From a virus (taxonomy: Duplodnaviria > Heunggongvirae > Uroviricota > Caudoviricetes): a DNA stretch of 63,616 nucleotides. A model generated the notes under the pieces. That model was given only the letters and a program-made list of their open reading frames with translations. It was not told where the DNA came from and searched no databases. This document shows, one piece after another, positions 1,369 through 58,934 of this stretch. Numbering within the stretch: the first letter of the stretch is position 1; every line of letters starts with the position of its first letter. The position numbers and the translations under genes are program-made. The stretch lies in the IMG/VR virus record IMGVR_UViG_2851982317_000002; one strand, 5' to 3'.

Positions 1369-1444
1369 GCCGATATAGCTCAGTTGGTAGAGCAGCGCAT
1401 TCGTAATGCGAAGGTCGTAGGTTCGACTCCTATTATCGGCACCA
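1369..1444 (+). tRNA. thrW: tRNA-Thr (anticodon CGU)
   Basis: 76-nt sequence GCCGATATAGCTCAGTTGGTAGAGCAGCGCATTCGTAATGCGAAGGTCGTAGGTTCGACTCCTATTATCGGCACCA with D-loop AGTTGGTAGAG, anticodon loop TTCGTAA, T-arm GGTTCGACTCC and encoded CCA end. Confidence 0.93.
1399..1444 (+). repeat. attL core: 3' 46 bp of thrW, directly repeated at 47076-47121
   Basis: Exact 46-bp direct repeat ATTCGTAATGCGAAGGTCGTAGGTTCGACTCCTATTATCGGCACCA found at both positions by eye; integrase gene lies immediately adjacent. Confidence 0.75.
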
Positions 1445-1458
1445 TTTAAATCAATAAG

Positions 1459-18566: not shown

Positions 18567-19058
18567 ATGGATCATGAGTTGAAAAACTTGGTGCTGAATA
18601 TTAATCAACTGGCGGCTTTATCTGGTCTGCACCGCCAGACTGTCGTGGCAAGACTGAAAAACATTCGTCCCGCTGGTGGACATGACAAACTCAAGCTATA
18701 CCGGTTGACCGATATTCTGACTGAATTTATGGGGTTACCACCGCCGGTTGCTGAGGGCGAAATGGATCCACATGAACGCAAAGCCTGGTATCAGTCTGAA
18801 CGTGAGCGTCTTAAGTTCGAACAGGAAACGGCACAACTCATTCCGGCCAGTGATGTCAGACGGGAGTTTGCCATCTGGGCAAAAGCGGTCGTGCAGGTGC
18901 TGGAGACATTACCGGATATTCTGGAACGTGACTGCGGCCTGCAGCCTGCCGCTGTGAGCCGTGTTCAGTCCATTATTGATGATCTGCGCGATCAGATAGC
19001 CCTGCGGGTGACCGAAGCAGGTGCGGATGATGAGGAGGAATTACAGCAGGAGGAGTAA
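18567..19058 (+). CDS. terminase small subunit (Nu1-like)
   Basis: 163 aa; N-terminal HTH (LNINQLAALSGLHRQTVVARLKNIRP) like lambda Nu1; GGAGG RBS; stop overlaps terL start. Confidence 0.75.
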   Translation: MDHELKNLVLNINQLAALSGLHRQTVVARLKNIRPAGGHDKLKLYRLTDILTEFMGLPPPVAEGEMDPHERKAWYQSERERLKFEQETAQLIPASDVRREFAIWAKAVVQVLETLPDILERDCGLQPAAVSRVQSIIDDLRDQIALRVTEAGADDEEELQQEE

Positions 19059-21160
19059 TGCTGAATCAGGAAACCGCAAAGGCAGCACGAACCGATTCAG
19101 GTTATATCCTTCGCGCACCGAGACGAATGCGGGTTGCTGATGCCGTTGCTCAGTATATGCGGGTGCCCATGGGGGCCGGGAATTCAGTCCCGTGGGATCC
19201 GCTGGTGGCACCGTATGTTATTGAGCCGATGAACTGCCTGGCCTCGCGTGAATACGACGCAGTGATATTTGTTGGCCCGGCACGAACTGGCAAGACTATC
19301 GGCCTGATTGACGGCTGGGTGATTTACAATGTGATTTGCGATCCTGCTGATATGCTGATCATTCAGATGACGGAGGAAAAAGCCCGCGAACACTCCAAAA
19401 AACGACTTGCCAGAACGTTTCGCGTCAGCCCGGAAGTGGTCAGTCGCCTGAGTCCGAACAAAAATGACAACAACGTTTATGACAGAACATTCCTTGCTGG
19501 CAACTACCTGAAAATCGGCTGGCCGTCAGTCAATATCATGTCCTCATCAGATTATAAATGCGTGGCGCTGACGGATTATGACCGTTTTCCGGAAGATATT
19601 GATGGCGAGGGGGATGCCTTCTCTCTTGCCTCAAAACGTACCACCACATTTATGTCCAGTGGTATGACGCTGGTGGAGAGTTCCCCCGGCAGGGATGTGA
19701 AGGATGTGAAATGGCGACGGACTTCACCGCATGAGGCTCCACCAACCACGGGGATACTGTCGCTCTATAACCGTGGCGATCGCCGTCGCTGGTACTGGCC
19801 CTGTCCACACTGTGGTGAGTATTTTCAGCCCTGCGGCGATGTGGTTGCTGGTTTCCGTGATATTGCCGATCCCGTGCTGGCAAGTGAGGCGGCTTATATT
19901 CAGTGTCCTTCCTGTTCAGGACGGATTATGCCTGAACAAAAACGTGAGCTGAACGGACGTGGGGTCTGGTTGCGGGATGGTGAATCCATCAATGCGGATG
20001 GCAGTCGTTATGGTGATCCCCGACGCTCACGTATTGCGTCATTCTGGATGGAGGGTCCGGCAGCTGCTTACCAGACACTCTCGCAACTCGTTTACAAACT
20101 GCTTACTGCAGAACAGGAATACGAGACAACCGGAAGTGAAGAAACACTCAAGACGGTTATCAATACCGACTGGGGATTACCTTATCTTCCCCGTGCCAGC
20201 ATGGAGCAACGAAAAAGTGAACTGCTTGAGCAGCGGGCAGAGCCAGTTCCTTCCCGCAGTGTGCCGGATGGCGTTAATTTCCTGGTGGCGACAGTTGATG
20301 TGCAGGCGGGACGTCATCGCCGTTTTGTGGTTCAGGTAACGGGCTATGGCAGCCGTGGCGAACGCTGGATTATTGATCGTTACAACATCACGCAGTCATT
20401 GCGCGGTGACAGCGACGGGGAGAGCCAGCGAATTGATCCGGCCAGCTATCCGGAAGACTGGGATGTCCTGCTGACGGATGTTTTTCATAAAAGCTGGCCG
20501 CTGGCCTCCGATCCTTCTCAACAAATGCGACTGATGGCAATGGCGGTGGACTCCGGCGGTGAAGACGGGGTCACTGATAATGCCTATAAATTCTGGCGTC
20601 GTTGCCGTCGTGATGGCCTTGGTAAACGTATTTACCTGTTTAAGGGCGACAGCATCCGGCGCGCAAAACTGATCACCCGTACATTCCCTGATAACACCGG
20701 ACGAACGGGCCGACGGGCGCAGGCCGCAGGTGATGTGCCGCTCTGGCTTCTTCAGACGGATGCCCTGAAAGATCGGGTGAATAACGCGTTATGGCGTGAC
20801 TCTCCAGGTCCCGGCTATGTGCATTTCCCTGACTGGCTGGGGAGCTGGTTTTACGACGAACTGACGTATGAAGAGCGGAGTAGTGACGGGAAATGGAGTA
20901 AGCCGGGTCGCGGTGCCAACGAAGCTTTTGACCTGATGGTGTATGCCGAGGCTCTGGTCATTCTGCATGGATACGAAAAGATCCGCTGGCCGGATGCACC
21001 GGAGTGGGCGAGCCGGGAAACCTGGCTGGAGTGTGTCCCGGACAGTACCGAACCGTCACCCTCACCGGAACCGGTATCCACGCCTGTTAAAAAACAAAAA
21101 CGGAAGAAAACAGTAACTGACGATGTTAACCCCTGGCTGACTTCCGGAGGATGGTTATGA
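19058..21160 (+). CDS. terminase large subunit (lambda gpA family)
   Basis: 700 aa; Walker A VGPARTGKT; CxxC zinc-ribbon-like WPCPHCGEYF; size and position as for lambda A. Confidence 0.9.
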   Translation: MLNQETAKAARTDSGYILRAPRRMRVADAVAQYMRVPMGAGNSVPWDPLVAPYVIEPMNCLASREYDAVIFVGPARTGKTIGLIDGWVIYNVICDPADMLIIQMTEEKAREHSKKRLARTFRVSPEVVSRLSPNKNDNNVYDRTFLAGNYLKIGWPSVNIMSSSDYKCVALTDYDRFPEDIDGEGDAFSLASKRTTTFMSSGMTLVESSPGRDVKDVKWRRTSPHEAPPTTGILSLYNRGDRRRWYWPCPHCGEYFQPCGDVVAGFRDIADPVLASEAAYIQCPSCSGRIMPEQKRELNGRGVWLRDGESINADGSRYGDPRRSRIASFWMEGPAAAYQTLSQLVYKLLTAEQEYETTGSEETLKTVINTDWGLPYLPRASMEQRKSELLEQRAEPVPSRSVPDGVNFLVATVDVQAGRHRRFVVQVTGYGSRGERWIIDRYNITQSLRGDSDGESQRIDPASYPEDWDVLLTDVFHKSWPLASDPSQQMRLMAMAVDSGGEDGVTDNAYKFWRRCRRDGLGKRIYLFKGDSIRRAKLITRTFPDNTGRTGRRAQAAGDVPLWLLQTDALKDRVNNALWRDSPGPGYVHFPDWLGSWFYDELTYEERSSDGKWSKPGRGANEAFDLMVYAEALVILHGYEKIRWPDAPEWASRETWLECVPDSTEPSPSPEPVSTPVKKQKRKKTVTDDVNPWLTSGGWL

Positions 21161-37704: not shown

Positions 37705-37715
37705 GTGGGGTGAAT

Positions 37716-40700
37716 ATGGCAGTAAAGATTTCAGGTGTACTGAAAGACGGCACAGGAAAACCGGTACAGAACTGCACAATCCAGCTGAAAGCAAAACGTA
37801 ACAGCACCACGGTGGTGGTGAACACGCTGGCCTCAGAAAATCCGGATGAAGCCGGGCGTTACAGCATGGACGTTGAGTACGGGCAGTACAGCGTTATTCT
37901 GTTGGTGGAGGGATTCCCGCCGTCACATGCCGGGACCATCACCGTGTATGAAGATTCCCGACCCGGTACGCTGAATGATTTTCTCGGTGCCATGACGGAG
38001 GATGATGCCCGTCCTGAGGCACTGCGCCGTTTTGAACTGATGGTGGAAGAGGTGGCGCGTAACGCGTCCGCGGTGGCACAGAACACGGCAGCCGCGAAGA
38101 AGTCAGCCAGCGATGCCGGCACATCAGCCCGTGAGGCGGCAACCCATACGACTGATGCTGCAGGCTCAGCACGCGCAGCCAGCACGTCAGCCGGACAGGC
38201 CGCGTCGTCGGCTCAGTCAGCATCTTCCAGCGCAGGAACGGCATCAACAAAGGCCAGTGAAGCATCGAAAAGTGCTGCTGCTGCAGAGTCCTCAAAAAGC
38301 GCGGCAGCTACCAGTGCCGCTGCGGCGAAAACGTCAGAAACGAATGCGGCAGCGTCACAACAATCAGCAGCCACTTCTGCATCCGCCGCGACCACGAAGG
38401 CGTCAGAAGCAGCCACCTCAGCCCGGGATGCGGCGGCCTCAAAAGAGGCAGCGAAATCATCAGAAACGAACGCATCATCAAGCGCCAGTAGTGCCGCTTC
38501 CTCGGCAACGGCGGCAGGCAATTCCGCGAAGGCGGCAAAGACGTCTGAGACAAACGCCAGGTCTTCTGAAACGGCAGCGGGACAGAGCGCCTCGGCTGCG
38601 GCAGGCTCAAAAACAGCGGCTGCGTCGTCTGCCAGTGCCGCGTCAACAAGTGCCGGGCAGGCCTCAGCCAGTGCCACCGCCGCCGGAAAATCGGCAGAAA
38701 GTGCCGCATCGTCTGCTTCAACAGCCACAACGAAGGCTGGCGAAGCCACTGAACAGGCCAGCGCAGCAGCGAGGTCTGCTTCCGCAGCGAAGACATCCGA
38801 GACGAACGCGAAAGCGTCGGAAACCAGCGCAGAATCCTCAAAAACGGCTGCCGCATCGTCCGCCAGTTCGGCGGCGTCATCGGCATCATCGGCGTCTGCT
38901 TCAAAAGATGAGGCGACCAGACAAGCGTCCGCAGCGAAGGGCAGCGCCACGACAGCATCCACGAAGGCGACAGAGGCAGCTGGCAGTGCGACGGCGGCAG
39001 CACAGAGCAAAAGTACGGCGGAATCCGCGGCAACGCGCGCCGAGACAGCGGCAAAACGGGCAGAGGATATTGCATCCGCCGTGGCGCTTGAGGATGCAAG
39101 TACGACGAAAAAGGGGATAGTACAGCTCAGCAGTGCGACCAACAGTACGTCTGAAACGCTGGCGGCAACGCCAAAGGCAGTAAAATCAGCCTATGACAAT
39201 GCAGAGAAACGTCTGCAGAAAGACCAGAACGGCGCTGATATACCCGATAAGGGACGCTTCCTGAACAACATTAACGCGGTCAGTAAAACAGACTTTGCTG
39301 ATAAGCGTGGTATGCGTTATGTGCGGGTTAACGCTCCTGCAGGTGCAACATCTGGAAAATATTACCCTGTTGTTGTTATGCGTTCTGCTGGCTCAGTAAG
39401 CGAACTGGCATCAAGGGTCATTATCACCACGGCAACGCGAACCGCAGGCGATCCGATGAATAACTGCGAGTTTAACGGATTTGTTATGCCTGGTGGCTGG
39501 ACTGACAGGGGGCGTTATGCTTATGGAATGTTCTGGCAATATCAAAACAATGAACGAGCCATCCACTCAATAATGATGAGTAATAAGGGCGATGATTTGC
39601 GCTCTGTGTTCTATGTTGATGGCGCTGCTTTCCCTGTTTTTGCGTTTATCGAAGATGGCCTGTCAATATCCGCACCTGGTGCTGATCTCGTTGTTAATGA
39701 TACGACCTATAAGTTTGGGGCAACAAATCCGGCGACTGAATGTATCGCGGCGGACGTTATCCTTGATTTTAAGAGTGGGCGTGGTTTTTATGAGTCTCAT
39801 TCATTAATCGTTAACGATAACTTGTCGTGCAAAAAACTTTTTGCCACAGACGAAATTGTAGCGCGTGGTGGTAATCAGATTCGAATGATAGGTGGGGAGT
39901 ATGGGGCATTATGGCGTAATGATGGCGCTAAAACTTACCTGCTGCTTACCAATCAAGGTGATGTTTATGGTGGCTGGAATACATTAAGACCGTTTGCTAT
40001 TGATAACGCAACCGGCGAACTGGTTATTGGAACCAAACTGTCCGCAAGTCTGAACGGTAATGCATTAACAGCAACAAAGCTGCAAACGCCAAGACGGGTT
40101 TCTGGTGTTGAGTTTGATGGTTCCAAAGATATTACTTTAACCGCCGCGCATGTGGCTGCTTTTGCCAGAAGGGCAACGGATACATATGCCGATGCGGATG
40201 GTGGCGTTCCCTGGAATGCCGAATCAGGCGCTTATAATGTCACCCGCTCTGGCGACAGCTATATTCTGGTTAACTTCTATACCGGAGTCGGAAGTTGCCG
40301 GACCTTGCAGATGAAGGCGCATTACAGAAATGGTGGTCTGTTCTACCGTTCTTCAAGAGACGGTTATGGTTTTGAGGAAGACTGGGCAGAAGTTTATACC
40401 TCGAAAAATCTTCCACCAGAAAGCTACCCAGTCGGCGCACCAATCCCGTGGCCATCAGATACCGTTCCGCCTGGTTATGCCCTGATGCAGGGGCAGACTT
40501 TTGACAAATCTGCATACCCGAAACTTGCAGCCGCTTATCCGTCAGGCGTGATCCCTGATATGCGTGGCTGGACGATTAAGGGCAAACCTGCCAGTGGTCG
40601 CGCCGTATTGTCTCAGGAACAGGACGGCATTAAATCGCACACCCACAGCGCCAGCGCATCCAGTACGGATTTGGGGACGAAAAACACATCGTCGTTTGAT

Positions 40701-41117
40701 TACGGAACCAAATCCACGAATAACACCGGGGCGCATACCCATAGTATTAGCGGGACTGCAAATAGTGCCGGTGCGCACCAACACAAGAGTTCCGGTGCAT
40801 TTGGTGGCACGAACACGAGCATTTTCCCTAATGGTTATACCGCGATTTCAAATCCAAGCGCGGGGATTATGAGCACAACAAGCGGTAGTGGCCAGACTCG
40901 TAATGCAGGGAAGACATCATCAGATGGTGCTCATACCCACTCGCTGTCCGGCACTGCTGCAAGCGAAGGCGCACATGCACATACTGTCGGTATTGGTGCT
41001 CATACGCACTCCGTTGCGATTGGCTCACATGGACACACCATCACCGTTAACGCTGCTGGTAACGCGGAAAACACCGTCAAAAACATCGCATTTAACTATA
41101 TTGTGAGGCTTGCATAA
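37716..41117 (+). CDS. stf: side tail fiber protein
   Basis: ATG at 37716 ([26 protein letters not shown]...) matches the lambda Stf N-terminus as I recall it; long Ala/Ser/Thr-rich repeat region (about 38100-39100) and C-terminal GAHxHS/HxH repeats. Confidence 0.85.
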
Positions 41118-41701
41118 TGGTATTCAGAATGAGTGAACAACCACGGACCATAACAATTTATAATCTGCTGGCCGGAACTAATGAATTTATTGGTGAAGGT
41201 GATGCATATATTCCGCCTCATACAGGTCTGCCAGCAAACAGTACCGATATTGCACCGCCAGATATTCCGGCAGGCTTCGTGGCTGTTTTCAACAGTGATG
41301 AGGCATCGTGGCATCTCGTTGAAGATCATCGGGGTAAAACGGTTTATGACGTGGCTTCCGGCGACGCGTTATTTATTTCTGAACTCGGTCCGTTACCGGA
41401 AAATGTTACCTGGTTATCGCCGGGAGGGGAATATCAGAAGTGGAACGGCACAGCCTGGGTGAAGGATACGGAAGCAGAAAAACTGTTCCGGATCCGGGAG
41501 GCGGAAGAAACAAAAAACAGCCTGATGCAGGTAGCCAGTGAGCATATAGCGCCGCTTCAGGATGCTGTAGATCTGGAGATCGCAACGGAGGAAGAAAACT
41601 CGTTGCTGGAAGCCTGGAAAAAGTATCGGGTGTTGCTGAACCGTGTTGATACATCAACTGCACCGGATATTGAGTGGCCTGCTGTCCCTGTTATGGAGTA
41701 A
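41117..41701 (+). CDS. tfa: tail fiber assembly protein
   Basis: 194 aa, near-identical by memory to lambda Tfa ([59 protein letters not shown]...). Confidence 0.9.
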
Positions 41702-42045
41702 TCGTTTTGTGATATGCCGCAGACACGTCGTATGCAGAAACGTGCTGCGGCTGGCTGGTGAACTTTCAATAGTGCGAGTATTGAATGATTTCCAGCTGTT
41801 ATCGATTTTATGTGTTTTTTGCATGAGGGGATTTCCACCACCTCCCACCGACCATCTAAGACTTTATGCCACTGTCCCTAGGACTGCTATGTACTAGGAG
41901 CGGATGTTAAACTCAGACTCGTTTCAGCTACATTGCGTTTTGAATAATATTCCATCATAATAACTCTTTGAAAAATGTGATCTTTTCATTTATAACACTG
42001 ATGACTTGCTTATCTCATTGGGATATCGGAGGAGAATACTTAACT

Positions 42046-42174
42046 ATGACAAGCCCGATTATTATGACACTGGCTATATTATATAGATTGATATTAAAAT
42101 GTAGGATTAGGTTCTTGCCAAGGTGTCAAGATTTACAGATAGGTTTAAAACCATATAAATATGTTTTACGGTGA
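42046..42174 (+). CDS. hypothetical small hydrophobic protein
   Basis: 42-aa ORF (MTSPIIMTLAILYRLILKCRIRF...) with GGAGGAG upstream, in the AT-rich leader of the NACHT-like gene; could be spurious. Confidence 0.2.
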   Translation: MTSPIIMTLAILYRLILKCRIRFLPRCQDLQIGLKPYKYVLR

Positions 42175-42238
42175 GATACAATACATATTGTAAGGCATAA
42201 ACGCTTGGTAAAATTTTAATTATTGGAAGAAGCTAATC

Positions 42239-45200
42239 ATGGAACCCATATCAATTACAGTGGCAACTTATGTAGCAACTAAACTTATTGATCAATTCAT
42301 CTCTCAAGAAGGATATGGTTGTATTAAGAAAGCATTATTCCCCCAAAAAAGATATGTGGATAGATTATATCAACTAATTGAAGAGACGGCAATTGAGTTT
42401 GAAGAAATATATCCAGTAGAAAGTGGAGCAATACCATTTTATCATTCCGAACCATTGTTTGAGATGTTGAATGAGCACATCTTTTTTAAAGAGTTCCCTG
42501 ACAAAGAGATATTATTAGACAAGTTCAAAGAATATCCAAGTATCACTCCCCCAACTCAACAACAACTCAGCCTTTTTTATGAGATGTTATCATTAAAAAT
42601 CAATAATTGTTCGAAGTTAAAAAAGCTACATATCGAAGAAACGTATAAAGAAAAAATATTCGATATTAATGAAGAGCTCATTCAAGTCAAACTTATTTTA
42701 CGGTCTATAGATGAGAAACTAACTTTTCACTTAAGTGATGATTGGTTAAATGAAAAAAATAGTCAAGCAATAGCTGACTTGGGAGGTCGATACACACCCG
42801 AACTCAACGTAAAGCTAGAAATAGCAGAGATATTTGATGGCCTCGGTAGAACTAATGATTTTTCTAAAATATTTTATTCGCATATAGATAGCTTTCTGGT
42901 CGCTGGAAAGAAATTACATAGTTGCGATGTAATTTCCTCAGAATTATTTGAAATAAACCAGTCCTTAAAAGAAATTTCTGATATATATCAGGAGATTAAT
43001 TTTTCTAAATTAGATGAAATCCCTATAAATAAATTTAATAACTATGTTTCTAGCTGCCAGACAGCTATTGGCGGAGCGGTATCAATATTGTGGGAACTCC
43101 GAGAAAAGTCAGAGCAAGTAGGTGAAACCAAGCATTACAGTGATAAGTATTCATCTACTCTGCGAATGCTTCGGGAATTTGACTATGCGTGCAATGAATT
43201 ACGTATATTCATTAATTCAACAACAGTGAAGTTGGCTAACAACCCATTCTTACTTCTCGAAGGAAAAGCAGGAATTGGTAAGTCTCATTTACTGGCTGAT
43301 GTGATTAAAAATCGAATTGCTTCTGGGTATCCTTCACTACTCATACTAGGGCAACAACTTACTTCAGATGAATCTCCATGGTCACAAATCTTCAAGAGAT
43401 TACAGCTTAAAATCACTTCTCGTGAATTCCTAGAAAAACTGAATTTATATGGCAAAAAAACAGGAAAAAGAGTCTTAGTTTTTATTGATGCTATTAATGA
43501 AGGTAATGGAAATAAATTCTGGAATGACAATATTAACAGTTTTGTCGATGAAATCAGATGCTTTGAATGGCTTGGTCTGATAATGTCAGTCAGAACAACA
43601 TATAGAAATGTAACAATTTCACATGAGAATGTTGTGCGAAATAATTTTGAAATTCATGAACATATTGGATTCCAGAACGTTGAGTTGGAAGCGGTTAGTC
43701 TATTTTATGATTATTACAATATTGAGAGGCCTTCATCTCCTAACCTTAATCCAGAGTTTAAAAATCCTCTATTTCTTAAGTTATTGTGTGAAGGCATTAA
43801 GAAAAATGGTTTAACCAAAGTGCCTGTTGGATTTAATGGGATTTCAAATATTTTTAACTTTTTAGTTGAAGGGGTAAATAAATCATTAGCATCGCCAAAA
43901 AAATATGCATTCGATCCCAGTTTTCCTCTTGTTAAAGATGCTCTCAATGAAATCATAAAATTCAAATTAGAGATTGGTCGTAATAGTATTTCACTTAAAG
44001 ATGCTCACTCAGTGGTTCAATCTGTAGTTAATGATTATGTTGCTGATAAAACCTTCCTCAGCGCCTTGATTGACGAAGGATTATTGACTAAAGGCATAGT
44101 GAGAAATGATGATAATTCTACTGAGGAAGTAGTTTATGTGGCTTTTGAAAGGTTTGATGATCATTTAACTGTTAATTTTTTATTAAATGATGTTGAAAAT
44201 ATCGAAAGTGAATTTAAGCCTGATGGTCGTCTGAAAAAATATTTTCATGATGAATGTGATTTTTATATAAAATCGGGAATAGTAGAGGCGTTGTCTATTC
44301 AATTGCCAGAAAGGTATGAAAAAGAGCTTTATGAATTTCTGCCGGAGTTCAGCAATAATCTTAAATTACTAGAAGCCTTTATTGATAGCTTGATATGGCG
44401 CGATATTAAGGCTATTGATTTCGAAAAAATTAGACCTTTCATCAATGAACATGTTTTTAAATTTAAAGATAGTTTTGATCATTTCCTCGAGGCAGTGATC
44501 TCTATTTCAGGTTTAGTTGGCCATCCCTTTAATGCTAATTTCTTGCATGATTGGCTAAAAGATTATTCTTTGGCAAATCGAGATTCGTTTTGGACTACAG
44601 AACTTAAATATAAATATAGTGAAGACTCAGCATTTAGGCATCTAATCGATTGGGCATGGGCCAGAACAGATAAAAGCTTTGTTTCGGATGAGTCAATCGA
44701 GCTAGTTGCAACTAGTTTATGCTGGTTTTTAACTTCTAGTAACCGAGAACTTCGAGATTGCTCAACTAAGGCTTTAGTGAGTTTACTCGAGCCAAGAATT
44801 CCTGTATTGAGAAAAATAATTGATAAGTTTTATGGTGTAAATGATCCTTACGTTTGGGAAAGAATATTTGCAGTTGCATTAGGCTGTACATTGCGAACTG
44901 ATAATATTAAAGAACTAAAATATTTAGCCGAAACTGTTTACCAAAAGGTATTTTGTTCTAAGTATGTGTATCCAAATATATTACTTAGAGATTATGCTAG
45001 AGAGATTATTGAATTTGCTAATCATCTTGGATTGGAACTTGAAAGCATTGAATTATCCAAGACTAGACCACCCTACAACAGCATTTGGCCTGACAAGATT
45101 CCTTCAAAAGAGGAACTAGAGTCCCTTTATGATAAAGAACCTTATCGGGAACTCTGGAGCTCTATTATGGAAGATGGTGACTTTTCACGATATACTATTG

Positions 45201-46693
45201 GAACAAATTATAATCATTCTGATTGGTCTGGTTGCAAGTTTAATGAAACCCCTGTTGACCGTAAGCAAGTTTTTAAAACTTTCAAATGTAAACTAACTGA
45301 TCAACAAAAAGACTTGTATGATGCCACAGATCCTTTCATTTATGATGATAAATGCGAAGGAATTAAATTTGGTCGTGTGGTCGGTAGAAAAGCACAGGAA
45401 GAAATAAAGGCGAGCAAGAAATTATTTAAGAATTCATTGTCATACGATCTGTTAAGTGAGTTTGAAAATGAAATAGAGCCATACCTGGATCATAATAATA
45501 ATCTGCTGGAAACTGATAAACACTTTGATCTTCGACTAGCTCAACAATTTATATTCAATCGTGTTATAGAGCTTGGTTGGGATCCGGAGAAGCATGGTAA
45601 TTTTGACCAACAAATAGGAACTGGACGTGGACGTAGAGAGGCATTCCAAGAACGGATTGGTAAAAAATACCAATGGATTGCTTATTATGAATACATGGCA
45701 AGGCTAGCCGATAATTTTACTCGTTTTGAAGGTTATGGTGACGAACGAAAGGAAAATCCATACCAAGGGCCATGGGAGCCTTACGTAAGAGATATAGATC
45801 CCACTATCTTACTTAAAGAAACTGGAACGAAAAAAATAAGCAATAAAGAAATGTGGTGGCTTAATGATGAAGTGTTTGATTGGACTTGCTCTAATGAAGA
45901 CTGGGTTAAAAGTTCTACTACTATAACTAATTCATATGCTTTTATTGAAGTTAAAGATGATAATGGTGATGAATGGATAGTATTAGAAAGTCATCCATCA
46001 TGGAAAGAACCAAAAATTATTGGAAACGATGATTGGGGGCACCCACGAAAAGAGGTTTGGTATCAGATCAGAAGTTATATCGTTAAAGTTGAAGAATTTG
46101 AAAATTTTAGATGTTGGGCAATAGCTCAAGACTTTATGGGCAGGTGGATGCCGGAATGTACTGATAGATACCAATTATTTAATAGGGAGTACTATTGGTC
46201 CGAAGCATTTAAGTCTTTTAAATCAGATTATTATGGTGGATCTGACTGGACTTCGGTAACAGACCGGGAGTCTGGAGCTAAGATAGCTGATGTTAGTGTC
46301 ACTTCGATTAATTATTTGTGGGAAGAGGAGTTCGACAAATCAAAAATAGAAACTTTGAATTTTTTGAAGCCTAGTAACTTAATCTTTGAAAAGATGGGAT
46401 TAAAAAGTGGGGAAGTAGAGGGTAGCTTCAATGATGAAAATGGAACTATGGTTTGCTTTGCAGCTGAAGCTGTATATGCTTCAAAGCCGCATCTACTTGT
46501 TAAAAAAGAACCATTTTTAACAATGTTAAGGGACAATGGTTTTGAAATCGTTTGGACATTATTAGGTGAAAAGGGCGTTATAGGGGGCTCACTCATATCA
46601 AGTCATCATTATGGTCGACAGGAGTTTAGTGGAGCATTTTATTATGAAGACAGTCAGCTAACAGGAAGTCATAAAACTAGCTTTACGAGATAA
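42239..46693 (+). CDS. NACHT-like STAND NTPase, 1484 aa (candidate single-gene anti-phage defence protein)
   Basis: Single uninterrupted ORF; NACHT-type Walker A GKAGIGKS (aa 342-349; nt 43262-43285) and Walker B-like VLVFIDAINEG (aa 412-422); about 340 aa N-terminal and 850 aa C-terminal regions without recognisable motifs; AT-rich, located between tfa and attR. Confidence 0.75.
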   Translation: MEPISITVATYVATKLIDQFISQEGYGCIKKALFPQKRYVDRLYQLIEETAIEFEEIYPVESGAIPFYHSEPLFEMLNEHIFFKEFPDKEILLDKFKEYPSITPPTQQQLSLFYEMLSLKINNCSKLKKLHIEETYKEKIFDINEELIQVKLILRSIDEKLTFHLSDDWLNEKNSQAIADLGGRYTPELNVKLEIAEIFDGLGRTNDFSKIFYSHIDSFLVAGKKLHSCDVISSELFEINQSLKEISDIYQEINFSKLDEIPINKFNNYVSSCQTAIGGAVSILWELREKSEQVGETKHYSDKYSSTLRMLREFDYACNELRIFINSTTVKLANNPFLLLEGKAGIGKSHLLADVIKNRIASGYPSLLILGQQLTSDESPWSQIFKRLQLKITSREFLEKLNLYGKKTGKRVLVFIDAINEGNGNKFWNDNINSFVDEIRCFEWLGLIMSVRTTYRNVTISHENVVRNNFEIHEHIGFQNVELEAVSLFYDYYNIERPSSPNLNPEFKNPLFLKLLCEGIKKNGLTKVPVGFNGISNIFNFLVEGVNKSLASPKKYAFDPSFPLVKDALNEIIKFKLEIGRNSISLKDAHSVVQSVVNDYVADKTFLSALIDEGLLTKGIVRNDDNSTEEVVYVAFERFDDHLTVNFLLNDVENIESEFKPDGRLKKYFHDECDFYIKSGIVEALSIQLPERYEKELYEFLPEFSNNLKLLEAFIDSLIWRDIKAIDFEKIRPFINEHVFKFKDSFDHFLEAVISISGLVGHPFNANFLHDWLKDYSLANRDSFWTTELKYKYSEDSAFRHLIDWAWARTDKSFVSDESIELVATSLCWFLTSSNRELRDCSTKALVSLLEPRIPVLRKIIDKFYGVNDPYVWERIFAVALGCTLRTDNIKELKYLAETVYQKVFCSKYVYPNILLRDYAREIIEFANHLGLELESIELSKTRPPYNSIWPDKIPSKEELESLYDKEPYRELWSSIMEDGDFSRYTIGTNYNHSDWSGCKFNETPVDRKQVFKTFKCKLTDQQKDLYDATDPFIYDDKCEGIKFGRVVGRKAQEEIKASKKLFKNSLSYDLLSEFENEIEPYLDHNNNLLETDKHFDLRLAQQFIFNRVIELGWDPEKHGNFDQQIGTGRGRREAFQERIGKKYQWIAYYEYMARLADNFTRFEGYGDERKENPYQGPWEPYVRDIDPTILLKETGTKKISNKEMWWLNDEVFDWTCSNEDWVKSSTTITNSYAFIEVKDDNGDEWIVLESHPSWKEPKIIGNDDWGHPRKEVWYQIRSYIVKVEEFENFRCWAIAQDFMGRWMPECTDRYQLFNREYYWSEAFKSFKSDYYGGSDWTSVTDRESGAKIADVSVTSINYLWEEEFDKSKIETLNFLKPSNLIFEKMGLKSGEVEGSFNDENGTMVCFAAEAVYASKPHLLVKKEPFLTMLRDNGFEIVWTLLGEKGVIGGSLISSHHYGRQEFSGAFYYEDSQLTGSHKTSFTR

Positions 46694-47075
46694 AAATGAA
46701 TCTCAGAGCTGAATATATAAGTAGTATTAGAAACCGGGTTATACTTAAGAAATCAATCTTAAGTGTGGCAGTCGAATGGTAGCTAATATGCTAGCGGCGC
46801 TAATGCCTGTTTGTTGCTCATAACAGGCATTCACTTTAGTTATGGCAGAAAAGTATACATGCTGGGTTGGGAAAGTGTGAAAGAAAGGAAGATTGCTGCG
46901 CCGTTTGTCGTCACGTTTATCTTCATTGGCTATGCAAGTCGTAATAAAAGGTGGGACAAAACTGAGACACATAAAGCCTCGCAATGGCTTGCAAGGCTTT
47001 ACATGTTTTGATGTGGTGGGACGTGTGAGCGCAGTGTTGATGGGGTAATGCTTTGAATTAGAAGCGGATTCTTAT

Positions 47076-47121
47076 AATTCGTAATGCGAAGGTCGTAGGT
47101 TCGACTCCTATTATCGGCACC
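47076..47121 (+). repeat. attR core: 46-bp direct repeat of the thrW 3' end (tRNA fragment, not an intact tRNA)
   Basis: Identical to 1399-1444; lacks the tRNA 5' half. Confidence 0.75.
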
Positions 47122-47731
47122 ATTAAGAAAATCAATAACTTAGCTTAGCTTCTCTAAGAAATTGTATCTTCTGTTATCACTTACAAACGCCTATACGTTG
47201 TTATGGGCTTTGGTAGTGTAACACGTATGGGCGAGTAGTTCCCAGGCTCAACCTCGTAACAAGTTCCTTTGAAGCTGGAAGACGTGCCACCGTCTCTAAA
47301 CCTTCTACCAAAACTCTTAGCAAGATGTTCCACACCTGGCGCGGTGTCCAATGATGCTACACGTCGAGATGACGTTGCAGAGGATAAACAGGCTAAATGA
47401 TGGGAAGAGTAGTTTTAAGTGCATAGTGGATTAAAGCCCACCTCTTCAAAACCTAACTTGATCGGGAAAGAATCAAGCTCTAGCACGGTTTCGTCCACCG
47501 GAGTACAACGGGTGCCTGATAAGAGAAGAACTGCTAAGACTTCATAGCTTTTGTGAAAAAGCCCTTTTTAGTGGATACGCCTACGGCGCTTATTTTTTGG
47601 GGTAGCCCATCAAAGGCGCTTTATGGCTCCTATTGTCTTGAAAATGTATCTTTACTTGTATTGTGTTTTATGCGTAGTCTCCCTGTGTAGTATGTAACTT
47701 GTTAATTTTCATATGAATACAGAGGCACACG

Positions 47732-47896
47732 ATGAAAAACATTGCAGCTATCAAACGTAATAACCGCAAGATTCACGCTCGTAAGTTCCTGTCTACGCCA
47801 GAAGGAAAAGCCTGGCTAGAGCGTAAACAGAGAGAGAACGAAGAAAGAAAACTCCTTAGTGAGTTGAAAGTAAGCGACTCGTCAGAACCGTATTGA
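47732..47896 (+). CDS. small hypothetical protein, 3' end altered by IS66 insertion
   Basis: ATG at 47732 with AGAGG RBS; reading frame runs into the IS left end at 47870 (last residues now VSDSSEPY); joining the two target-duplication copies would restore ...SELKWLKD-stop. Confidence 0.4.
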   Translation: MKNIAAIKRNNRKIHARKFLSTPEGKAWLERKQRENEERKLLSELKVSDSSEPY

Positions 47897-47899
47897 TAT

Positions 47900-49471
47900 T
47901 TACTGAGAGCTCAGATCAACTTTCCAGGGCAACAGATCGCGTACCCGGTTTGCCGGCCAGTCCTGGATATGTTCAATGACGTAACGCAGCCACTTTTCTG
48001 GCTCCACATTGTTCAGACGGCATGTGCCGATCAGCGAGTACAACACCGCCGCATGTTCACCACCGCTGTCGGAACCCGCGAACATCCAGTTTTTCCGGCC
48101 TACGGCCACTCCCCGTAAGGCGTTCTCTGCGATGTTGTTGTCGATTTCCACCCAGCCATTACTGCAGTACACGTTCAGTGCATCCCACTGTTTCAGCAGG
48201 TATGCGAACGCTTTTGCCGTATCTGAGTGACGCGACAGTGTTTTCATCTGTTGCTGTATCCAGTCATACAGTGACTGCATCAGTGGCGCGGCTCTGGCTT
48301 TTCTTGCCGCCAGACGCTGTTCTGCTGAACAGCCCCGGACCTCTGCCTCGATGGCATACAGTTCACCGATACGCTGCAGGGCTTCCGTGGTGATGTAGGT
48401 GGGCGCTCTTGCATGCACATCGTGGATTTTTCTCCGGGCATGAGCCATACACGCGGCTTCCGTTATTCTGCCGGATTCGTATAACGCCCGGTAACCACCG
48501 TAAGCATCGGCCTGAAGCACACCGCTGTAACCGGCCAGGTGATTTTGTGGATGGATACCTTTCCGGTCCGGACTGTACGCGAACCAGACCGCCGGGGGCA
48601 TCTGTGAACCGGCGTTACGGTCATCACGGACGTAGACCCACAGCCGGGCTGTCCGGGTTTTACCGCTGCCCGGCTCCTGGACCGGGACGGGGATATCATC
48701 AGCATGGACTTTACCGGGCATCAGCACATACTGGCGCAGGACGTCATACAGCGGCTCCAGCAGTTCAGCAACAGCACCTGTCCAGCGCCCCAGTGTGGCA
48801 CGGCTCAGCTCCACTCCCTGACGACGGTATATTTCTGACTGGCGGTATAACGGCAGATGGTCTGCATATTTCCCGGTGACAACATGGGCCAGAAGCCCCG
48901 CTCCGGCATAACTGCGTGCAATGGGTTTTGAAGGTACTGGTGCCTGCACGATATGGTCGCACCGGCAACAGGCCTGTTTCGGACGTTGTGTTTCAATAAC
49001 CTTAAAGGCGCTGCTGATAAGCTCCAGTTGCTCTGACACATCACATCCCAGAGAACTGAGTTCACCACCACAGGCAGGACAGCATTCCTCTTCCGGCCGG
49101 ATAACCCGGGTTTCACGGGGAAGTGAGGCCGGTAACGGTTTACGGGCTGAAGACTGGCGCAGGGCGGATGGCAGTACCGGGTCATATTGCTCACCCAGCG
49201 TTTCCGCCATTTCTTCCTGAAGTGCGCTGATTCGCTCCTGTGCTTCCTGTATCTGCCGTTCGGTTTTTGCACGAAGTTTTTCTGAGCTTTTACCGAACTG
49301 CATACGTTGCAGTTTCGCAACCAGCGCCTTCAGCCGGTTGATTTCGGAAGCATAAGCCGCCACCCGCTGTGAGAGCAGGCGGTTGTATTCAGCCATCTGG
49401 CGGATGGTGTCCTGTTGCGTCTGCAACAGTGCCCGCAGGCGGGCGTTCTCATGAGCAAGTGAGGTGTCCAT
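47900..49471 (-). CDS. tnpC: IS66-family transposase (TnpC/Orf3)
   Basis: 523 aa; N-terminal leucine-zipper-like region, CxxC...C motifs (CCPACGG) and conserved IS66 transposase core. Confidence 0.85.
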
Positions 49472-49490
49472 ATCCTCACTTTACAACGGG

Positions 49491-49838
49491 TTATATGCGG
49501 ATTCCAGCGCGTTCCGTTCGTTTCGGGTGCTTCCAGTTGATACCTTCAAGAAGCATGGATAACTGAGCCGGAGTAAGGTGCACCTTGCCGTCACGGGTGA
49601 CTGGCCAGACGAAGCGGCCCCGCTCCAGGCGTTTGGTGAAGAGGCACAGTCCGTCACTGTCAGCCCACAACACTTTTATCTGGTCACCCCGGCGTCCGCG
49701 GAAGATGAACAGGTGTCCGGAGAACGGGTCATCCTTCAGGACGTTCTGAACTTTTGATGCCAGGCCGTTAAAGCCATTTCGCATATCGGTGATACCTGCA
49801 ACCAGCCAGATACGCGAACCTGCAGGGAGAGATATCAT
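49491..49838 (-). CDS. tnpB: IS66 Orf2 (TnpB)
   Basis: 115 aa, MISLPAGSRIWLVAGITDMRNGFNGLA... characteristic of IS66 Orf2. Confidence 0.8.
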   Translation of the reverse strand: MISLPAGSRIWLVAGITDMRNGFNGLASKVQNVLKDDPFSGHLFIFRGRRGDQIKVLWADSDGLCLFTKRLERGRFVWPVTRDGKVHLTPAQLSMLLEGINWKHPKRTERAGIRI

Positions 49839-50515
49839 CAGTGGCTGCTCCCTTTTATTTCGCGGATAAGTGTCTGTAATAACGCCGGCGTCAGTTTACC
49901 TTTAAGCCTGAGAGTTCCGGCCGGCAGAACCAGCTCACAACACAGACTGTCGGACGGTGTATTTATCTGCTCTGGTTCCTGTGCGGGGGCCGGGATTTTA
50001 TTATCCGGCTCCGGCGTTAACGTCACGGGAAGCAGTGCCGGCATATTTTTTCCGGAAGGCAGCAGGCCACCTTTCCGGTATTGATGGCGCCAGTTGAAGA
50101 GCAGGTTATCGTTGATTCCGTTTTCCCGGGCGATCTGCGCCACACAGGCTCCGGGCTGCAGTGACTGCTCCACTAAGGCGATTTTAAACTCATAAGGGAA
50201 GTTGGGCCGCCGGGGACGTTTTTTTACCACGGGGGCTTCGGATATAACGGTGCTTTCAGGACGTACGACTGGTACCGTGGAAAATTGTCCGTAAAGGCAG
50301 GCATCAAGTTCCTGCTCCGACATGCCTGCGGGCAAAGGCCACGAAAGGCCAGCTCTCCGAAAGCGCACGAACATACTACAAACTGTTGATTTTGGTACAC
50401 CCAGGCGACGCCCGGCCACAACCCGGGGTAAATGTTCTTCAAAGTGAAGACGTAAAGCTTCAGTGATCCAGGTCCGGTGTTTCATACGATAGTGTCCATT
50501 AAAAATGATGGACAT
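49838..50515 (-). CDS. tnpA: IS66 Orf1 (TnpA, HTH)
   Basis: 225-aa ORF overlapping the tnpB start; HTH-like region (FKIALVEQSLQPGACVAQIARENGINDNLLFNW); true start may be the internal ATG near 50485. Confidence 0.65.
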   Translation of the reverse strand: MSIIFNGHYRMKHRTWITEALRLHFEEHLPRVVAGRRLGVPKSTVCSMFVRFRRAGLSWPLPAGMSEQELDACLYGQFSTVPVVRPESTVISEAPVVKKRPRRPNFPYEFKIALVEQSLQPGACVAQIARENGINDNLLFNWRHQYRKGGLLPSGKNMPALLPVTLTPEPDNKIPAPAQEPEQINTPSDSLCCELVLPAGTLRLKGKLTPALLQTLIREIKGSSH

Positions 50516-50657
50516 TATTTTTGTAGAGCCGGAGGAAACAGACCAGACGGTTTAAATGAGCCGGTTACAGTTGAAATGGCTTAAGGATTGAATCACCAGT
50601 AGGCGCATAACACATCCAGCGATCAAAGATGTGTTTATGCGCCTGATAGTGAAATTA

Positions 50658-50816
50658 TTAAAGTCGTTTAGTTAACATCGCCATTGCTTGAGCAATAATT
50701 GCAACAGCGTCCATCTCTTCACTGGAAGCGATGCAAATGCGGTAACTAATAGCCACAATGAATACATCAATAACGAGAAAGTGAATAGTGTGAAGATGTT
50801 TTGAAAGTAAATGCAT
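50658..50816 (-). CDS. hypothetical small protein (52 aa)
   Basis: ATG 5 nt after GGAGG (minus strand); translation MHLLSKHLHTIHFLVIDVFIVAISYRICIASSEEMDAVAIIAQAMAMLTKRL done by hand; followed downstream by an imperfect 15-16-bp hairpin (50610-50651); not in the supplied ORF track (below 60 aa). Confidence 0.3.
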   Translation of the reverse strand: MHLLSKHLHTIHFLVIDVFIVAISYRICIASSEEMDAVAIIAQAMAMLTKRL

Positions 50817-51210
50817 AACTTCCTCCGGTTTTGGGATAGGAGGATTAGAACATGCATTAAATGATGTTGCAAGAATGGCAATTTACCCTAATAGTCTACT
50901 ATTCACCTCAATCTACGTCAACCAATATTTGATGTAGATTTAATTTTCTTTTAAAAACAATATGTTGTTATTTGTTGAATTTTGGGGTTAGGTTGTTTTT
51001 TGAACGTTTTCATCAAGTGTAAAGATACGTTTAGCCTTCATAGTGAGTTCAGTTACTGTCTTTTTCTCTGAAATCGGCGCAAACGTGATCATCGCTTGAG
51101 GTTGCTGCTCTTACTTCTCAAATTGTGATGGAGAACGATAAAGGTTAGAGGGCACTTTTATTTTTTTAAGCAAGTGTATAGCATAAGAATAATCTAAAAA
51201 GGGAGGTTAT

Positions 51211-51762
51211 ATGCGCAGGTCTGCATTTGTGAGGATGATGATTTTTACAACGTTGTTTGTAGGGGGAACTTCTACCGCAGTTGCTAAAAACTGCAAAAAA
51301 GGAATACCTTGTGGTAACTCGTGTATAGCTGTTGGTAAGACGTGCCGGATTGGCTCTTATGCCCCTTCATCTTATAAAAATCATTCATACTCTTATCCTT
51401 CATCCTCTATTCGAAGCTCGCAATCAAATAATTCACGAAAAACTGAAGGAGTGAAAACGACTCCTGCTGCCAAAAATTATCTTTGCCAATACTCTATTGC
51501 ATCAATCGAAAACGGACGTTTAGGGGCATTACGTGTTCAGGGATACGCACAAGTAACTTTATATGCAGATAGCTTCAAGGCTAACAGATTAAATGGAACA
51601 TATTTGATATCGCCAAAACTGAATGCTAACGGCAAGTTTATGATGGCAGATGATAAAAGCAAGGTTTATGCTTATGATTCTTGGCTATTAAATTTTGCAA
51701 TAAGCGATCGTATCACAAGAACGACAGAACAATGGGATCGATGTAAGCTCAATCAAAAATAA
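51211..51762 (+). CDS. hypothetical secreted protein (signal peptide, Cys-rich N-terminus)
   Basis: 183 aa; ATG 4 nt after GGGAGG; N-terminal signal-like MRRSAFVRMMIFTTLFVGGTSTAVA then CKKGIPCGNSCIAVGKTC. Confidence 0.5.
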   Translation: MRRSAFVRMMIFTTLFVGGTSTAVAKNCKKGIPCGNSCIAVGKTCRIGSYAPSSYKNHSYSYPSSSIRSSQSNNSRKTEGVKTTPAAKNYLCQYSIASIENGRLGALRVQGYAQVTLYADSFKANRLNGTYLISPKLNANGKFMMADDKSKVYAYDSWLLNFAISDRITRTTEQWDRCKLNQK

Positions 51763-52158
51763 CAGTTAGAGAAGCTCTTGTAGAGGCATTATTGAGTTAT
51801 TGGTTTTAATATTTTTGTGCCTCTATGGGCTTTTTTTGCCTTTTTGCAAAGTAGGAGAGAGCACAGGAATCGTTAAAATTAATTATTGGGGTATTTAAGG
51901 TTATTTTCAGGTGGTTTAAGGGTATTAAACTTGATTTAATTGATTAAAATATAAACAGATAGCCCTGCATCTTATTGATTTATAAGGTTATTTTTAAATT
52001 AAGGTAAATAAAAAATAAATAGCCATAAATAGCTATAAATACATCTAAATACCTTTATCCCTTCCCTTATGGCTAGATTGCGAGAAGTGCTTAACGCGAT
52101 TTTCACCGCCCCCTGATCTGGAAAATCCAGAATCCCCAAATATCAGCAAGGAATTTTC

Positions 52159-52452
52159 TTGCGTAATCAACATCGTTTTTACCTATTAAATCATTACACA
52201 GAAAGCCTTTCTGTAATGTCTCTCACTAAACTTTCACTAAACACGAGAATGATCGGTTTTATGTCGGATCAGATGCTAGAAACAGCACCACGTCTCACAA
52301 GGGCTGTAAGCGATGAAACCAGTGTTTATGCGGGTGCAGGTCAAAATATGGGCCAAAATCCATTTAACATAATAATCGTAATATGCACTAAGGAACACAT
52401 AGAACGCCTTGAGTTGATGTATCAGGGGAAAAGTGGTGGATTTTTTACGTAG
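52159..52452 (+). CDS. hypothetical protein
   Basis: 97-aa ORF in an AT-rich region; no RBS or motif support. Confidence 0.2.
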   Translation: MRNQHRFYLLNHYTESLSVMSLTKLSLNTRMIGFMSDQMLETAPRLTRAVSDETSVYAGAGQNMGQNPFNIIIVICTKEHIERLELMYQGKSGGFFT

Positions 52453-52916
52453 GAGCACGAGAGGGCTTCTATTGACTTTTGTATGCTATGAAATATAATA
52501 GAAGGTTTTTTATTTTTATGTTGATAGTGATTGCACATTAAAGATTGAAAGCAAATTTAAACATAAATTTTCAACACGTGAAAGAAACTTGTTCGACAAA
52601 TAATAGATTGATTTTTAATCAACAATTTCTGATAGTGCGCTGTAGCCGCATTACACAAGGCTTTGCGAAAGTGATGTAAAAGTGAAGAAAGTAAGAATTG
52701 CACTTTTAAGCTACTTTTCATTGAATTTTTACGTAGGAATTACACAGGGATTAATCATCAATTACATTGAATTTAAGCCTGTTTTAGATGTTTAATTTTG
52801 GTAGCAAGAAACACTTTTAGAAGATCATTGCACAGATGTTATGTGATAAATGGATGTAACGGTAGGTCACTGTGAGCTACCCCTATCAAGTCTGATACCC
52901 GATAAGTATAAATAAC

Positions 52917-53019
52917 ACCTGGGAAATGAGTTCCGATCTATTTAGGAAATAACCGTGGAAGTGGTTTCCTACCTACCTAGGAAATGAGTTCCTATCACCT
53001 AGGAAATGATTTCCGACAA
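52917..53019. repeat. array of four palindromic (T)AGGAAAT(G/A)A...TTTCC motifs followed by a very AT-rich stretch
   Basis: Motifs at about 52921, 52944, 52979 and 53000 (GGGAAATGAGTTCC, AGGAAATAACC...GGTTTCCT, AGGAAATGAGTTCC, AGGAAATGATTTCC), then AT-rich 53020-53090. Confidence 0.5.
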
Positions 53020-54122
53020 TACTATAATTAAACTACAATTAAACTATATAATATAATTCTTTTTTATCTTTATAAGAATAATTATAGGGATACCCGTTAG
53101 GGAGTCTAACGACTATCCCTTAATCTATTGGCATTCGCCAGAACCTTGCACAAGTTAGAGTGTTAGTCGTTAGACTGCTTGTCATAACACATAGTTTTTG
53201 TTTGTTGATGTTAGTTAGTAGATCTATGTTCGCTAATGCCGCTCACAACGAATATGTAATCTACTATGTGCAAATAGCCTACGGCTTGCGTAAGGCTAAA
53301 TAGTCTTGCGCTGTGCGCAGAACGATAATTAACTAACTACCATCTAACGATTGAAATTTACTTGTGCAATAACCTGAGCGTAAGCGAATGGTTGTTAGTG
53401 TCTATGCGCTGTGCGCTTCAATAGTTCCATTGATGAGGCTTACGCCAATCTAACGATCATCAATCTATTTAAGAGAAAATCTATTGTGCAATACTCTGAC
53501 GAGTGCAATAACCTTGTGTGCTACGCGTTAGCGATGTTAGCACATAGACACAGACAACAACCAACAACAAACAAAAAAGAATGGTTTTAGTAGTTGAAGG
53601 TTAAATAAGTTTCTACCGCTTAAATCAAGCCGTAGGCGAGCTAAACGTATATAAGGCAGGGAAACCTTAGCGGTAATAGATTAGCTCATTATAGAGCTTC
53701 TGAGGAGCTTTACAGGTATTTTATAAGGTGTCTGAAATTAGAGTTTATCTATCATCTCCTTTTCATATACCTAACAAATACAAAATAAGCCCCTTAAATA
53801 AACCTCTGGCGAGCTAAACTGTCATTACATAAGGGAATGTATTGTTTTTATCAAAACCTCGTTAGAACGCGTTTTAGAGAATAAGGAAGAATAGCATCAC
53901 ACAGAAGAGCACGAATTGCTAAGCAAAATCATAACATACTGAAAAATGATCAATATTTTATGGGTGGGGGTTGACAAAAGCCTTTAGTTATGGTAAAGTA
54001 ATATTAGGGACAGGAAAACATTCCTATCCTCTAAATAATTAAACCAATGCACCGCACTTTGAAGCCCAAGAGGCTTGCAAGGTGTCTTTTTCTTTTAACC
54101 AAATAGAATAGGAGGTTAATTA

Positions 54123-54299: not shown

Positions 54300-54322
54300 T
54301 AACAGGAGAAGGAGAAAACCAA

Positions 54323-57117: not shown

Positions 57118-57121
57118 TCTT

Positions 57122-57505: not shown

Positions 57506-57519
57506 CAAGGAAAATAATA

Positions 57520-58900: not shown

Positions 58901-58934
58901 CAAACAATAATCATAATACAGGGAAACAATTAAC

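Follow-up and report, generated by a model that had tools for sequence, protein, structure and literature searches.

The 1484-Residue Cargo Protein of a thrW-Integrated Lambdoid Prophage Is Very Probably the Terminase Sensor EcAvs2

The DNA of the IMG/VR virus record IMGVR_UViG_2851982317_000002, analysed here over its full length of 63,616 nucleotides (referred to as the window), contains at positions 42239 to 46693 a large gene that an earlier sequence-only reading had taken for a giant STAND NTPase with a role in superinfection defence. We are all but certain that this open reading frame (ORF) is avs2, that it encodes EcAvs2, a single-gene defence protein of AVAST type 2, and that its carrier is a lambdoid prophage at thrW, whose right end it occupies as cargo; no evidence contradicts the identification as Avs2. 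This makes it a known gene, namely the reference Avs2 of the field, with a RefSeq annotation, a structure at 2.3 Å and published phenotypes. The novelty implied by the sequence-only reading is thus lost, as the gene carries the avs2 annotation in RefSeq and even the Walker A mutant proposed as a control has been published. What gives the case its value is that raw sequence sufficed to infer correctly a STAND defence gene carried by a prophage, together with the Walker A lysine and the cargo slot close to att.

Identification of the Cargo Gene as avs2

The assignment is carried by full-length matches to Avs2 family models and by near-identity to a protein that has been validated experimentally. 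The Avs2 equivalog of NCBIfam (NF041813) reaches 1689.6 bits, its cutoff being 1000, and aligns residues 178–1476 with positions 1–1317 of a model of 1317 positions, while six Avs2 models of PADLOC match at full length, the best of them (PDLC02164) with 1750.3 bits over residues 22–1483. A sequence search of the PDB returned one chain, 9o4e_A (“AVAST type 2 anti-phage system protein Avs2”, 1484 residues), which aligned over residues 1–1484 with 3442.9 bits. At the DNA level, the gene differs from the locus of WP_063118745.1 in strain EC19 at 1 of 4455 nucleotides and, in the product, at one residue (T57I), and the 540 nucleotides upstream of avs2 show no difference between the window and the EC19 locus; WP_063118745.1 is the accession under which EcAvs2 is listed in Table S1 of the corresponding preprint (bioRxiv 10.64898/2026.04.30.721860). 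The DNA of the window is, moreover, 100% identical to that of E. coli ATCC 43886 (NZ_CP024256.1), where RefSeq annotates the gene as avs2 with the product WP_032199984.1, an accession that appears in Table S4 of the same preprint (bioRxiv 10.64898/2026.04.30.721860). All EcAvs2 residues named there are kept in the window protein: K348, D981, T1128, R1130, R1132, W1266, E1362, E1364, E1444, and E1462. Among 5426 complete E. coli genomes, avs2 is present, and so annotated by RefSeq, in 88, at an identity of at least 99% in 78 of these and at full length in 87. The family models together with the near-identity to the validated EcAvs2 confirm the central claim of the sequence-only reading, namely a single-gene STAND anti-phage protein for which Avs had been named as a candidate. 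The gene and its parts are located as follows:

42119..42238, plus strand: leader with the native promoter that the published EcAvs2 constructs contain, by sequence match to Table S1
42239..46693, plus strand: avs2 coding sequence, EcAvs2 with I57 for T57; ATG start, 1484 residues plus stop
42239..42733, plus strand: N-terminal effector module (residues 1 to ~165), separate from the Avs2 family models
42734..43228, plus strand: helical extension between effector and NTPase (~residues 166–330), approximate bounds, from Avs2 profile coverage and the preprint
43262..43285, plus strand: Walker A motif GKAGIGKS (residues 342–349) with the catalytic lysine K348, by motif location
43472..43501, plus strand: Walker B motif VLVFIDAINE (residues 412–421, D417), by motif location
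44036..46690, plus strand: post-NTPase region (~residues 600–1484, approximate start) with the TPR domain, the beta-rich C-terminal sensor and the terminase pocket, after the cryo-electron microscopy (cryo-EM) paper; contact residues kept

The ORF listing of the window has one plus-strand entry for the gene, 42239..46693, and the guanine-cytosine (GC) profile gives a fraction of 0.31–0.39 across 42000–47000 against 0.44–0.64 in the upstream tail genes; for the gene itself the GC content is 31–38%, compared with about 50% in the flanks. Both agree with the earlier description of one 1484-residue ORF that is more AT-rich than the neighbouring tail genes. Because the frame remains unbroken over 4.4 kilobases (kb) of DNA with ~33% GC, the ORF cannot be a product of chance. 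The Walker A motif and the Walker B-like stretch beginning at residue 412 were both located in the translation where the sequence-only reading had placed them, and about 1060 residues lie C-terminal to Walker B. Between the stop codon of the preceding gene tfa (41701) and the ATG of avs2 there are 537 nucleotides, within which the first 108 nucleotides of the “Native” EcAvs2 promoter from the preprint's Table S1 recur identically at window positions 42119–42226; the leader that had been proposed for the gene thus contains the start of the published promoter sequence. In this leader we found no strong sigma-70 match, and a consensus scan for promoters and terminators yielded sites no more numerous than in shuffled sequence.

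General family collections are far less informative about this protein. PHROGs has no family for it, and when four sub-fragments were searched against Pfam (E-values up to 10), neither the effector nor the TPR or sensor part was recognised; a match to Gp38_E217 on one sub-fragment (12.7 bits) lies at chance level and was discarded. At the level of Pfam, the earlier statement that no motif is recognizable outside the NTPase therefore stands for both the N- and the C-terminal fragments. Structurally it fails: A TPR domain, which the sequence-only reading had not seen, is evident in the cryo-EM structure of EcAvs2, and the sensor, which it had considered potentially uncharacterised, corresponds in that solved structure to a beta-rich C-terminal domain that senses terminase.

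The Cargo Slot at thrW

The window begins in proA, which is followed by thrW at 1369–1444. An exact repeat of the 3′ part of this tRNA gene with its flank recurs downstream of avs2, and the two copies bound a lambdoid prophage of 45.7 kb, which contains an integrase, genes for immunity and replication, Q, lysis genes, terminase, portal, genes of head and tail, J, lom, stf, tfa, and finally avs2. The features that define the slot are:

1399..1446, plus strand: attL, 3′ part of thrW (tRNA-Thr CGT, 1369–1444) plus flank, exact repeat
37710–41117: stf
41117..41701, plus strand: tfa (tail fibre assembly), last structural gene of the prophage
41746..46813, plus strand: avs2 cassette, ~5.07 kb, AT-rich, between shared prophage sequences, from genome comparison
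47077..47124, plus strand: attR, exact copy of attL over 48 base pairs

The bounds of the cassette were derived from a comparison with the 5426 complete E. coli genomes. On the left, tfa and the next 60–120 nucleotides, up to ~41757–41816, are common to thousands of lambdoid prophages, and in genomes where avs2 neighbours pinE the similarity reaches ~490 nucleotides upstream of the ATG. On the right, the segment 46810–47124 is common to thrW elements with other cargo (DUF262, ParA, AraC, and GIY-YIG genes), and 383 nucleotides separate the avs2 stop codon from attR. In related elements, the tfa segment and the attR-proximal segment also flank other cargo or none, and the published allele WP_063118745.1 occupies tfa-avs2-attR-paoD in EC19. 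Consequently, avs2 is prophage cargo (a moron) at the tail-fibre/attR end, and the place assigned to it from raw sequence, between tfa and attR, is reproduced by the 48-base-pair attL/attR pair that brackets avs2 behind the last structural gene. The DNA of avs2 had no match in 50,697 phage records (blastn) or in 72,556 plasmids (megablast); as the phage records gave no match, the presence of the cassette in a packaged phage could not be shown. A discussion of the native tfa-attR slot of EcAvs2 at thrW, where it occurs together with a terminase of the prophage, was not found in the literature searched.

The locus shows some variation between strains. In the genomes NZ_CP068591.1 and NZ_CP068155.1, the avs2 cassette and ~490 nucleotides upstream of it stand at the same thrW/paoD site (positions 5924–11455, counted within the extracted locus); its upstream neighbours are the pinE invertase and e14- or Mu-like tail-fibre fragments in place of stf-tfa. 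The avs2 allele of EF7-18-58 differs at 78 residues, from residue 3 to at least residue 1333, with a dense cluster at residues 206–323 in the helical extension. Between avs2 and attR, at 46964–47006, there is a terminator-like hairpin of 18 pairs on the minus strand, which lies within the attR-proximal segment common to other thrW elements and overlaps a 66-residue ORF (46811–47011) that is hypothetical in the annotation of one genome.

Terminase Sensing by EcAvs2 and the Proposed Course of Defence

The mechanistic results summarized in the following were obtained with the published EcAvs2, which differs from the window protein in one residue (T57 versus I57). EcAvs2 protects against the phages PhiV-1, T7, ZL19, and Pal009, and co-expression screens of the whole proteomes of PhiV-1 and ZL19 identified the large terminase as its sole activator; the ATPase domain of the terminase suffices by itself, and terminases with less than 10% mutual identity are recognised (bioRxiv 10.64898/2026.04.30.721860). 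Size-exclusion chromatography showed that oligomerisation depends on terminase, and the cryo-EM structure of EcAvs2 with bound terminase at 2.3 Å (PDB 9O4E) revealed a flat C4 tetramer with an NBD-HD1-WHD arrangement, in which every protomer accommodates a single terminase in a pocket formed by the helical extension, an elaborate TPR domain, and the beta-rich C-terminal sensor (bioRxiv 10.64898/2026.04.30.721860). The helical extension, located between effector and ATPase, touches the terminase, and a third, “bridging” ATP occupies the EcAvs2–terminase interface (bioRxiv 10.64898/2026.04.30.721860). In mutational analyses, K348A abolishes the defence against Pal009, T7, and PhiV-1, and combined interface mutants such as R1132A/D981A/E1364A defend more weakly (bioRxiv 10.64898/2026.04.30.721860). 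The effector-NTPase-sensor architecture anticipated by the sequence-only reading is borne out by the separable N-terminal module, the Walker motifs, and the domain map of the solved T57 protein; likewise, the Walker A lysine that it had singled out is the very residue whose replacement in K348A abolishes defence.

The following course of events, which up to the tetramer has been shown in the literature for the T57 protein, can be proposed for the window protein. During infection, a large pocket made up of the TPR domain, the beta-rich sensor, and the helical extension would bind the terminase ATPase domain of the invading phage by complementarity of shape and charge, with the bridging ATP sealing the interface. 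Binding of the terminase would then lead the ATP-loaded STAND NTPase domains to assemble as a flat C4 tetramer, which would gather four N-termini, and the cell would die or stop growing before progeny emerge, that is, undergo abortive infection. The killing itself would presumably be exerted by the N-terminal module of ~165 residues through proximity-induced oligomerisation. In the lysogen, avs2 may protect both host and prophage from superinfecting tailed phages.

Comparison with Known Systems

The closest relative is EcAvs2 of EC19 itself (WP_063118745.1; PDB 9O4E; Gao et al. 2020/2022, as cited in the preprint; Evans et al., bioRxiv 2026), which shares the length of 1484 residues (1483 identical), the same 540 upstream nucleotides, and the same tfa-avs2-attR(thrW)-paoD slot. 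The two differ by T57I in the effector of the window protein and by an additional thrW-type island of ~16 kb that the window contains between attR and paoD. KpAvs2 of Klebsiella pneumoniae (Béchon et al., Nat Commun 2024, PMC11564622) belongs to the same family, follows the same tripartite logic, and also senses the large terminase, but its effector is an Mrr-like nuclease, which degrades DNA, and its operon also encodes a radical-SAM protein as well as a DUF6375 protein (PMC11564622), whereas the effector of the window protein is of the rarer type that is not a nuclease, and its gene stands between tfa and attR, unaccompanied by accessory genes. The trigger ranges of the two overlap in part: Ksap1 activates both EcAvs2 and KpAvs2, Ksap2 only KpAvs2 (bioRxiv 10.64898/2026.04.30.721860). 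SeAvs3 (PDB 8DGC) and Avs1 are likewise STAND terminase sensors that tetramerise upon binding and place a beta-rich C-terminal sensor on the same terminase surface. Their TPR domain is different, however, their tetramer is elongated, their effector is a nuclease, and they bind the terminase nuclease domain in its native fold, whereas in EcAvs2 the tetramer is flat, a bridging ATP takes part, and the nuclease helix that is bound is partly unfolded.

The N-terminal domain has relatives of its own. A homologous domain of ~160 residues, with E-values down to 1e-38, occurs at the N-terminus of NB-ARC+TPR STANDs, nSTAND3 NTPases, and a PIN-TPR-GreABC-like protein (~1255 residues); the backbones of these proteins are unrelated to Avs2, most of them are without a PADLOC match, and their sensors and triggers are presumably different.

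The N-Terminal Effector Module

Since the Avs2 family models begin only at residues 131–178, the segment from residue 1 to ~165 constitutes a separate module. An exhaustive HMMER search with residues 1–169 against 1.84 billion representatives yielded 219 clusters at E-values up to 1e-3; among the matches listed, the domain was N-terminal in 150 of 150, in proteins of ~870, ~1250, and ~1400–1490 residues. The effector-bearing backbones that we sampled comprise Avs2, NB-ARC+TPR STANDs, nSTAND3 NTPases, and the PIN-TPR-GreABC-like protein. In a word-indexed search for homologues of the effector, most of the matches were fragments. The preprint describes the effector domain as modular and as a distinct, less common Avs2 effector type (bioRxiv 10.64898/2026.04.30.721860), and our exhaustive search independently agrees with the preprint on this modularity.

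In an alignment of 62 effector sequences, the invariant or nearly invariant columns are F67, Y68, L43, L77, P105, F113, L127, and I140, nearly all of them hydrophobic, and no charged column exceeds 79%. AlphaFold2, supplied with this alignment, predicted an all-alpha effector with a mean pLDDT of 82, for which Foldseek found no fold relative in the PDB (best E-value 0.98, TM-scores of at most 0.25). The earlier suggestion that the effector may be uncharacterised has held up in structure prediction and Foldseek comparison, in agreement with the literature. Several candidate functions were considered and found wanting: A Bcl-2-like pore-former was rejected, as the Bcl-xL rows in the Foldseek output reach a probability of at most 0.06; a simple membrane anchor is not supported, as the first 40 residues contain no transmembrane segment and only modest amphipathicity (hydrophobic moment muH of 0.17–0.38 for helix 5–23, in a Kyte-Doolittle and hydrophobic moment analysis); and an Mrr or PD-(D/E)xK nuclease domain is not recognised, as residues 1–177 have no Pfam match at E-values up to 10, the model is all-alpha, and no nuclease is found among the fold matches. 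Because the conserved positions are almost all hydrophobic and no fold relative exists among the structures searched, our best guess, and it is only a guess based on the model and the alignment, is that the effector is most likely non-enzymatic and may act, for example, by perturbing membranes or protein assemblies. This module is the remaining mechanistic problem of EcAvs2, as was already flagged in the 2026 preprint.

Weighing of the Identification against Alternatives

Several points weigh against the interpretation as a functional prophage defence gene. All published assays of EcAvs2 were done in E. coli K-12 with a plasmid-borne T57 allele, and the one replaced residue, T57I, lies in the effector. 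The first ~35 residues of the effector model, including helix 5–23, are of low confidence (pLDDT 56–67), and in the cryo-EM map the effector is invisible and was ascribed “no clear enzymatic function” (bioRxiv 10.64898/2026.04.30.721860). Moreover, the prophage encodes a large terminase of its own, so that defence by the prophage and its own lytic cycle could conflict.

We considered whether the protein could belong to bNACHT, the NACHT clade of STAND NTPases, instead of Avs2, as the label “NACHT-like” of the sequence-only reading had implied. The weak Pfam matches to the P-loop region do include NACHT (13.1 bits), NPHP3_N (16.2), and NB-ARC (12.4) next to nSTAND6 (18.4) and nSTAND3 (13.2), all below threshold, and apart from generic P-loop AAA models all such matches belong to STAND families. 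The NACHT match (PF05729), however, stays far below its gathering cutoff of 26.7 bits and covers only residues 338–357, that is, the 20-residue P-loop; even the best of these matches, nSTAND6, falls short of its own cutoff. As no bNACHT model of PADLOC matches, whereas the six Avs2 models do so over their full length, and as the NCBIfam equivalog assigns the protein to Avs2, bNACHT is refuted as a family assignment on the evidence of the profiles, and we give it practically no credence. It would also be conceivable that defence is lost in this strain because avs2 has diverged or been inactivated, be it as a moron in decay or through an effector disabled by T57I. The single non-synonymous change relative to the tested allele does fall in the effector, and the locus is part of a mosaic region that contains an IS element. 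Against this, the frame of 1484 codons is intact, the near-absence of differences from the published locus extends from the coding sequence into the 540 upstream nucleotides, and the conservation across the 88 avs2-bearing genomes (78 at or above 99% identity, all except one at full length) is high. Position 57 is, furthermore, variable in the family: In the effector alignment it is occupied by K in 21 of 62 sequences and by I, which thus occurs naturally, in 5 of 62. A substitution in such a variable column is expected to be neutral, and judged from the alignment an effect of T57I is unlikely. Loss of function is therefore a highly improbable explanation.

A further alternative concerns not the identity of avs2 but its purpose: The gene might serve the biology of the prophage by sensing the prophage's own terminase and controlling or aborting induction, as a lysogeny lock or addiction module. 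The terminase in question is:

19058..21160, plus strand: large terminase (TerL) of the prophage, GpA family, apparently intact (Pfam GpA_ATPase 242 bits, GpA_nuclease 288 bits)

That this TerL appears intact, together with the ability of EcAvs2 to recognise terminases of hardly any mutual similarity, speaks for self-sensing, and so does the finding that avs2 stands in some genomes beside heavily decayed prophage remnants (pinE and tail-fibre fragments upstream), as would be expected if lytic growth were blocked. On the other hand, defence against external phages has been demonstrated directly for EcAvs2, and the decay of prophages at thrW is common regardless of their cargo. We regard self-sensing as improbable, though by no means negligible; it would, in any case, be compatible with the defence explanation rather than an alternative to it.

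The coexistence of avs2 with a prophage terminase nevertheless raises a question of self versus non-self. The TerL of the prophage is 99.9% identical to that of phage vB_EcoS-569R4 and ~24.6% identical to gpA of lambda; because of this low identity, the lambda terminase of the published library is no proxy for it. The vB_EcoS-569R4 record, the closest phage by TerL, is partial and ends inside a tail-fibre gene, so its cargo slot is not readable. With considerable reservation, we put forward a joint proposal, namely that the prophage's own TerL is either a natural escape variant or a self-target of avs2, and that the effector kills by a hitherto undescribed, non-enzymatic mechanism driven by oligomerisation; as a whole, this proposal is rather doubtful. 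If it were true, an escaping TerL would define what hides a terminase from a broad pattern-recognition receptor, whereas in the case of self-targeting avs2 would abort the lytic cycle of its own prophage and drive the decay seen at the locus in other strains. The decayed remnants beside avs2 are compatible with either answer, that is, with a TerL that is ignored and with an induction that is aborted.

Other Cargo and the Second thrW Element

In addition to avs2, the prophage contains a second defence-like cargo gene and two DNA methyltransferases, and a second element follows in tandem behind attR:

9497–10150, plus strand: phage N-6-adenine methyltransferase, from RefSeq annotation only
13247–14698, minus strand: ABC/OLD-type ATPase of 483 residues, second defence-like cargo gene, between the Q antiterminator and the lysis genes (PADLOC HEC-04, 159 bits)
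15455–16507, plus strand: N6_N4 type II-like DNA methyltransferase, adjoining the HEC-04-like ATPase (PADLOC MTase_II, 505 bits)
47125–63093: second AT-rich thrW-type element, in tandem after attR and before paoD, closed by a degenerate third thrW copy at 63055–63093
47900–50515, minus strand: complete IS66-family element, ISCro1-like (tnpA, tnpB, and a 523-residue transposase), near the left end of the second element
60910–61566: Dit-like tail protein in the second element
61641–62918, minus strand: tyrosine integrase of the second element

The ATPase at 13247–14698 also matches the PADLOC models ATPase-Toprim_I-B and AriA/GajA-type as well as Pfam AAA_15 and AAA_21, and the slot between Q and lysis genes is occupied in the sibling phage vB_EcoS-569R4 by two different hypothetical genes. 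Since no cognate restriction enzyme was seen, both methyltransferases are probably orphan enzymes of the anti-restriction type. In the second element, several ORFs have no Pfam or PADLOC match, for example one of 633 residues at 58935–60836. EC19 is entirely without this element.

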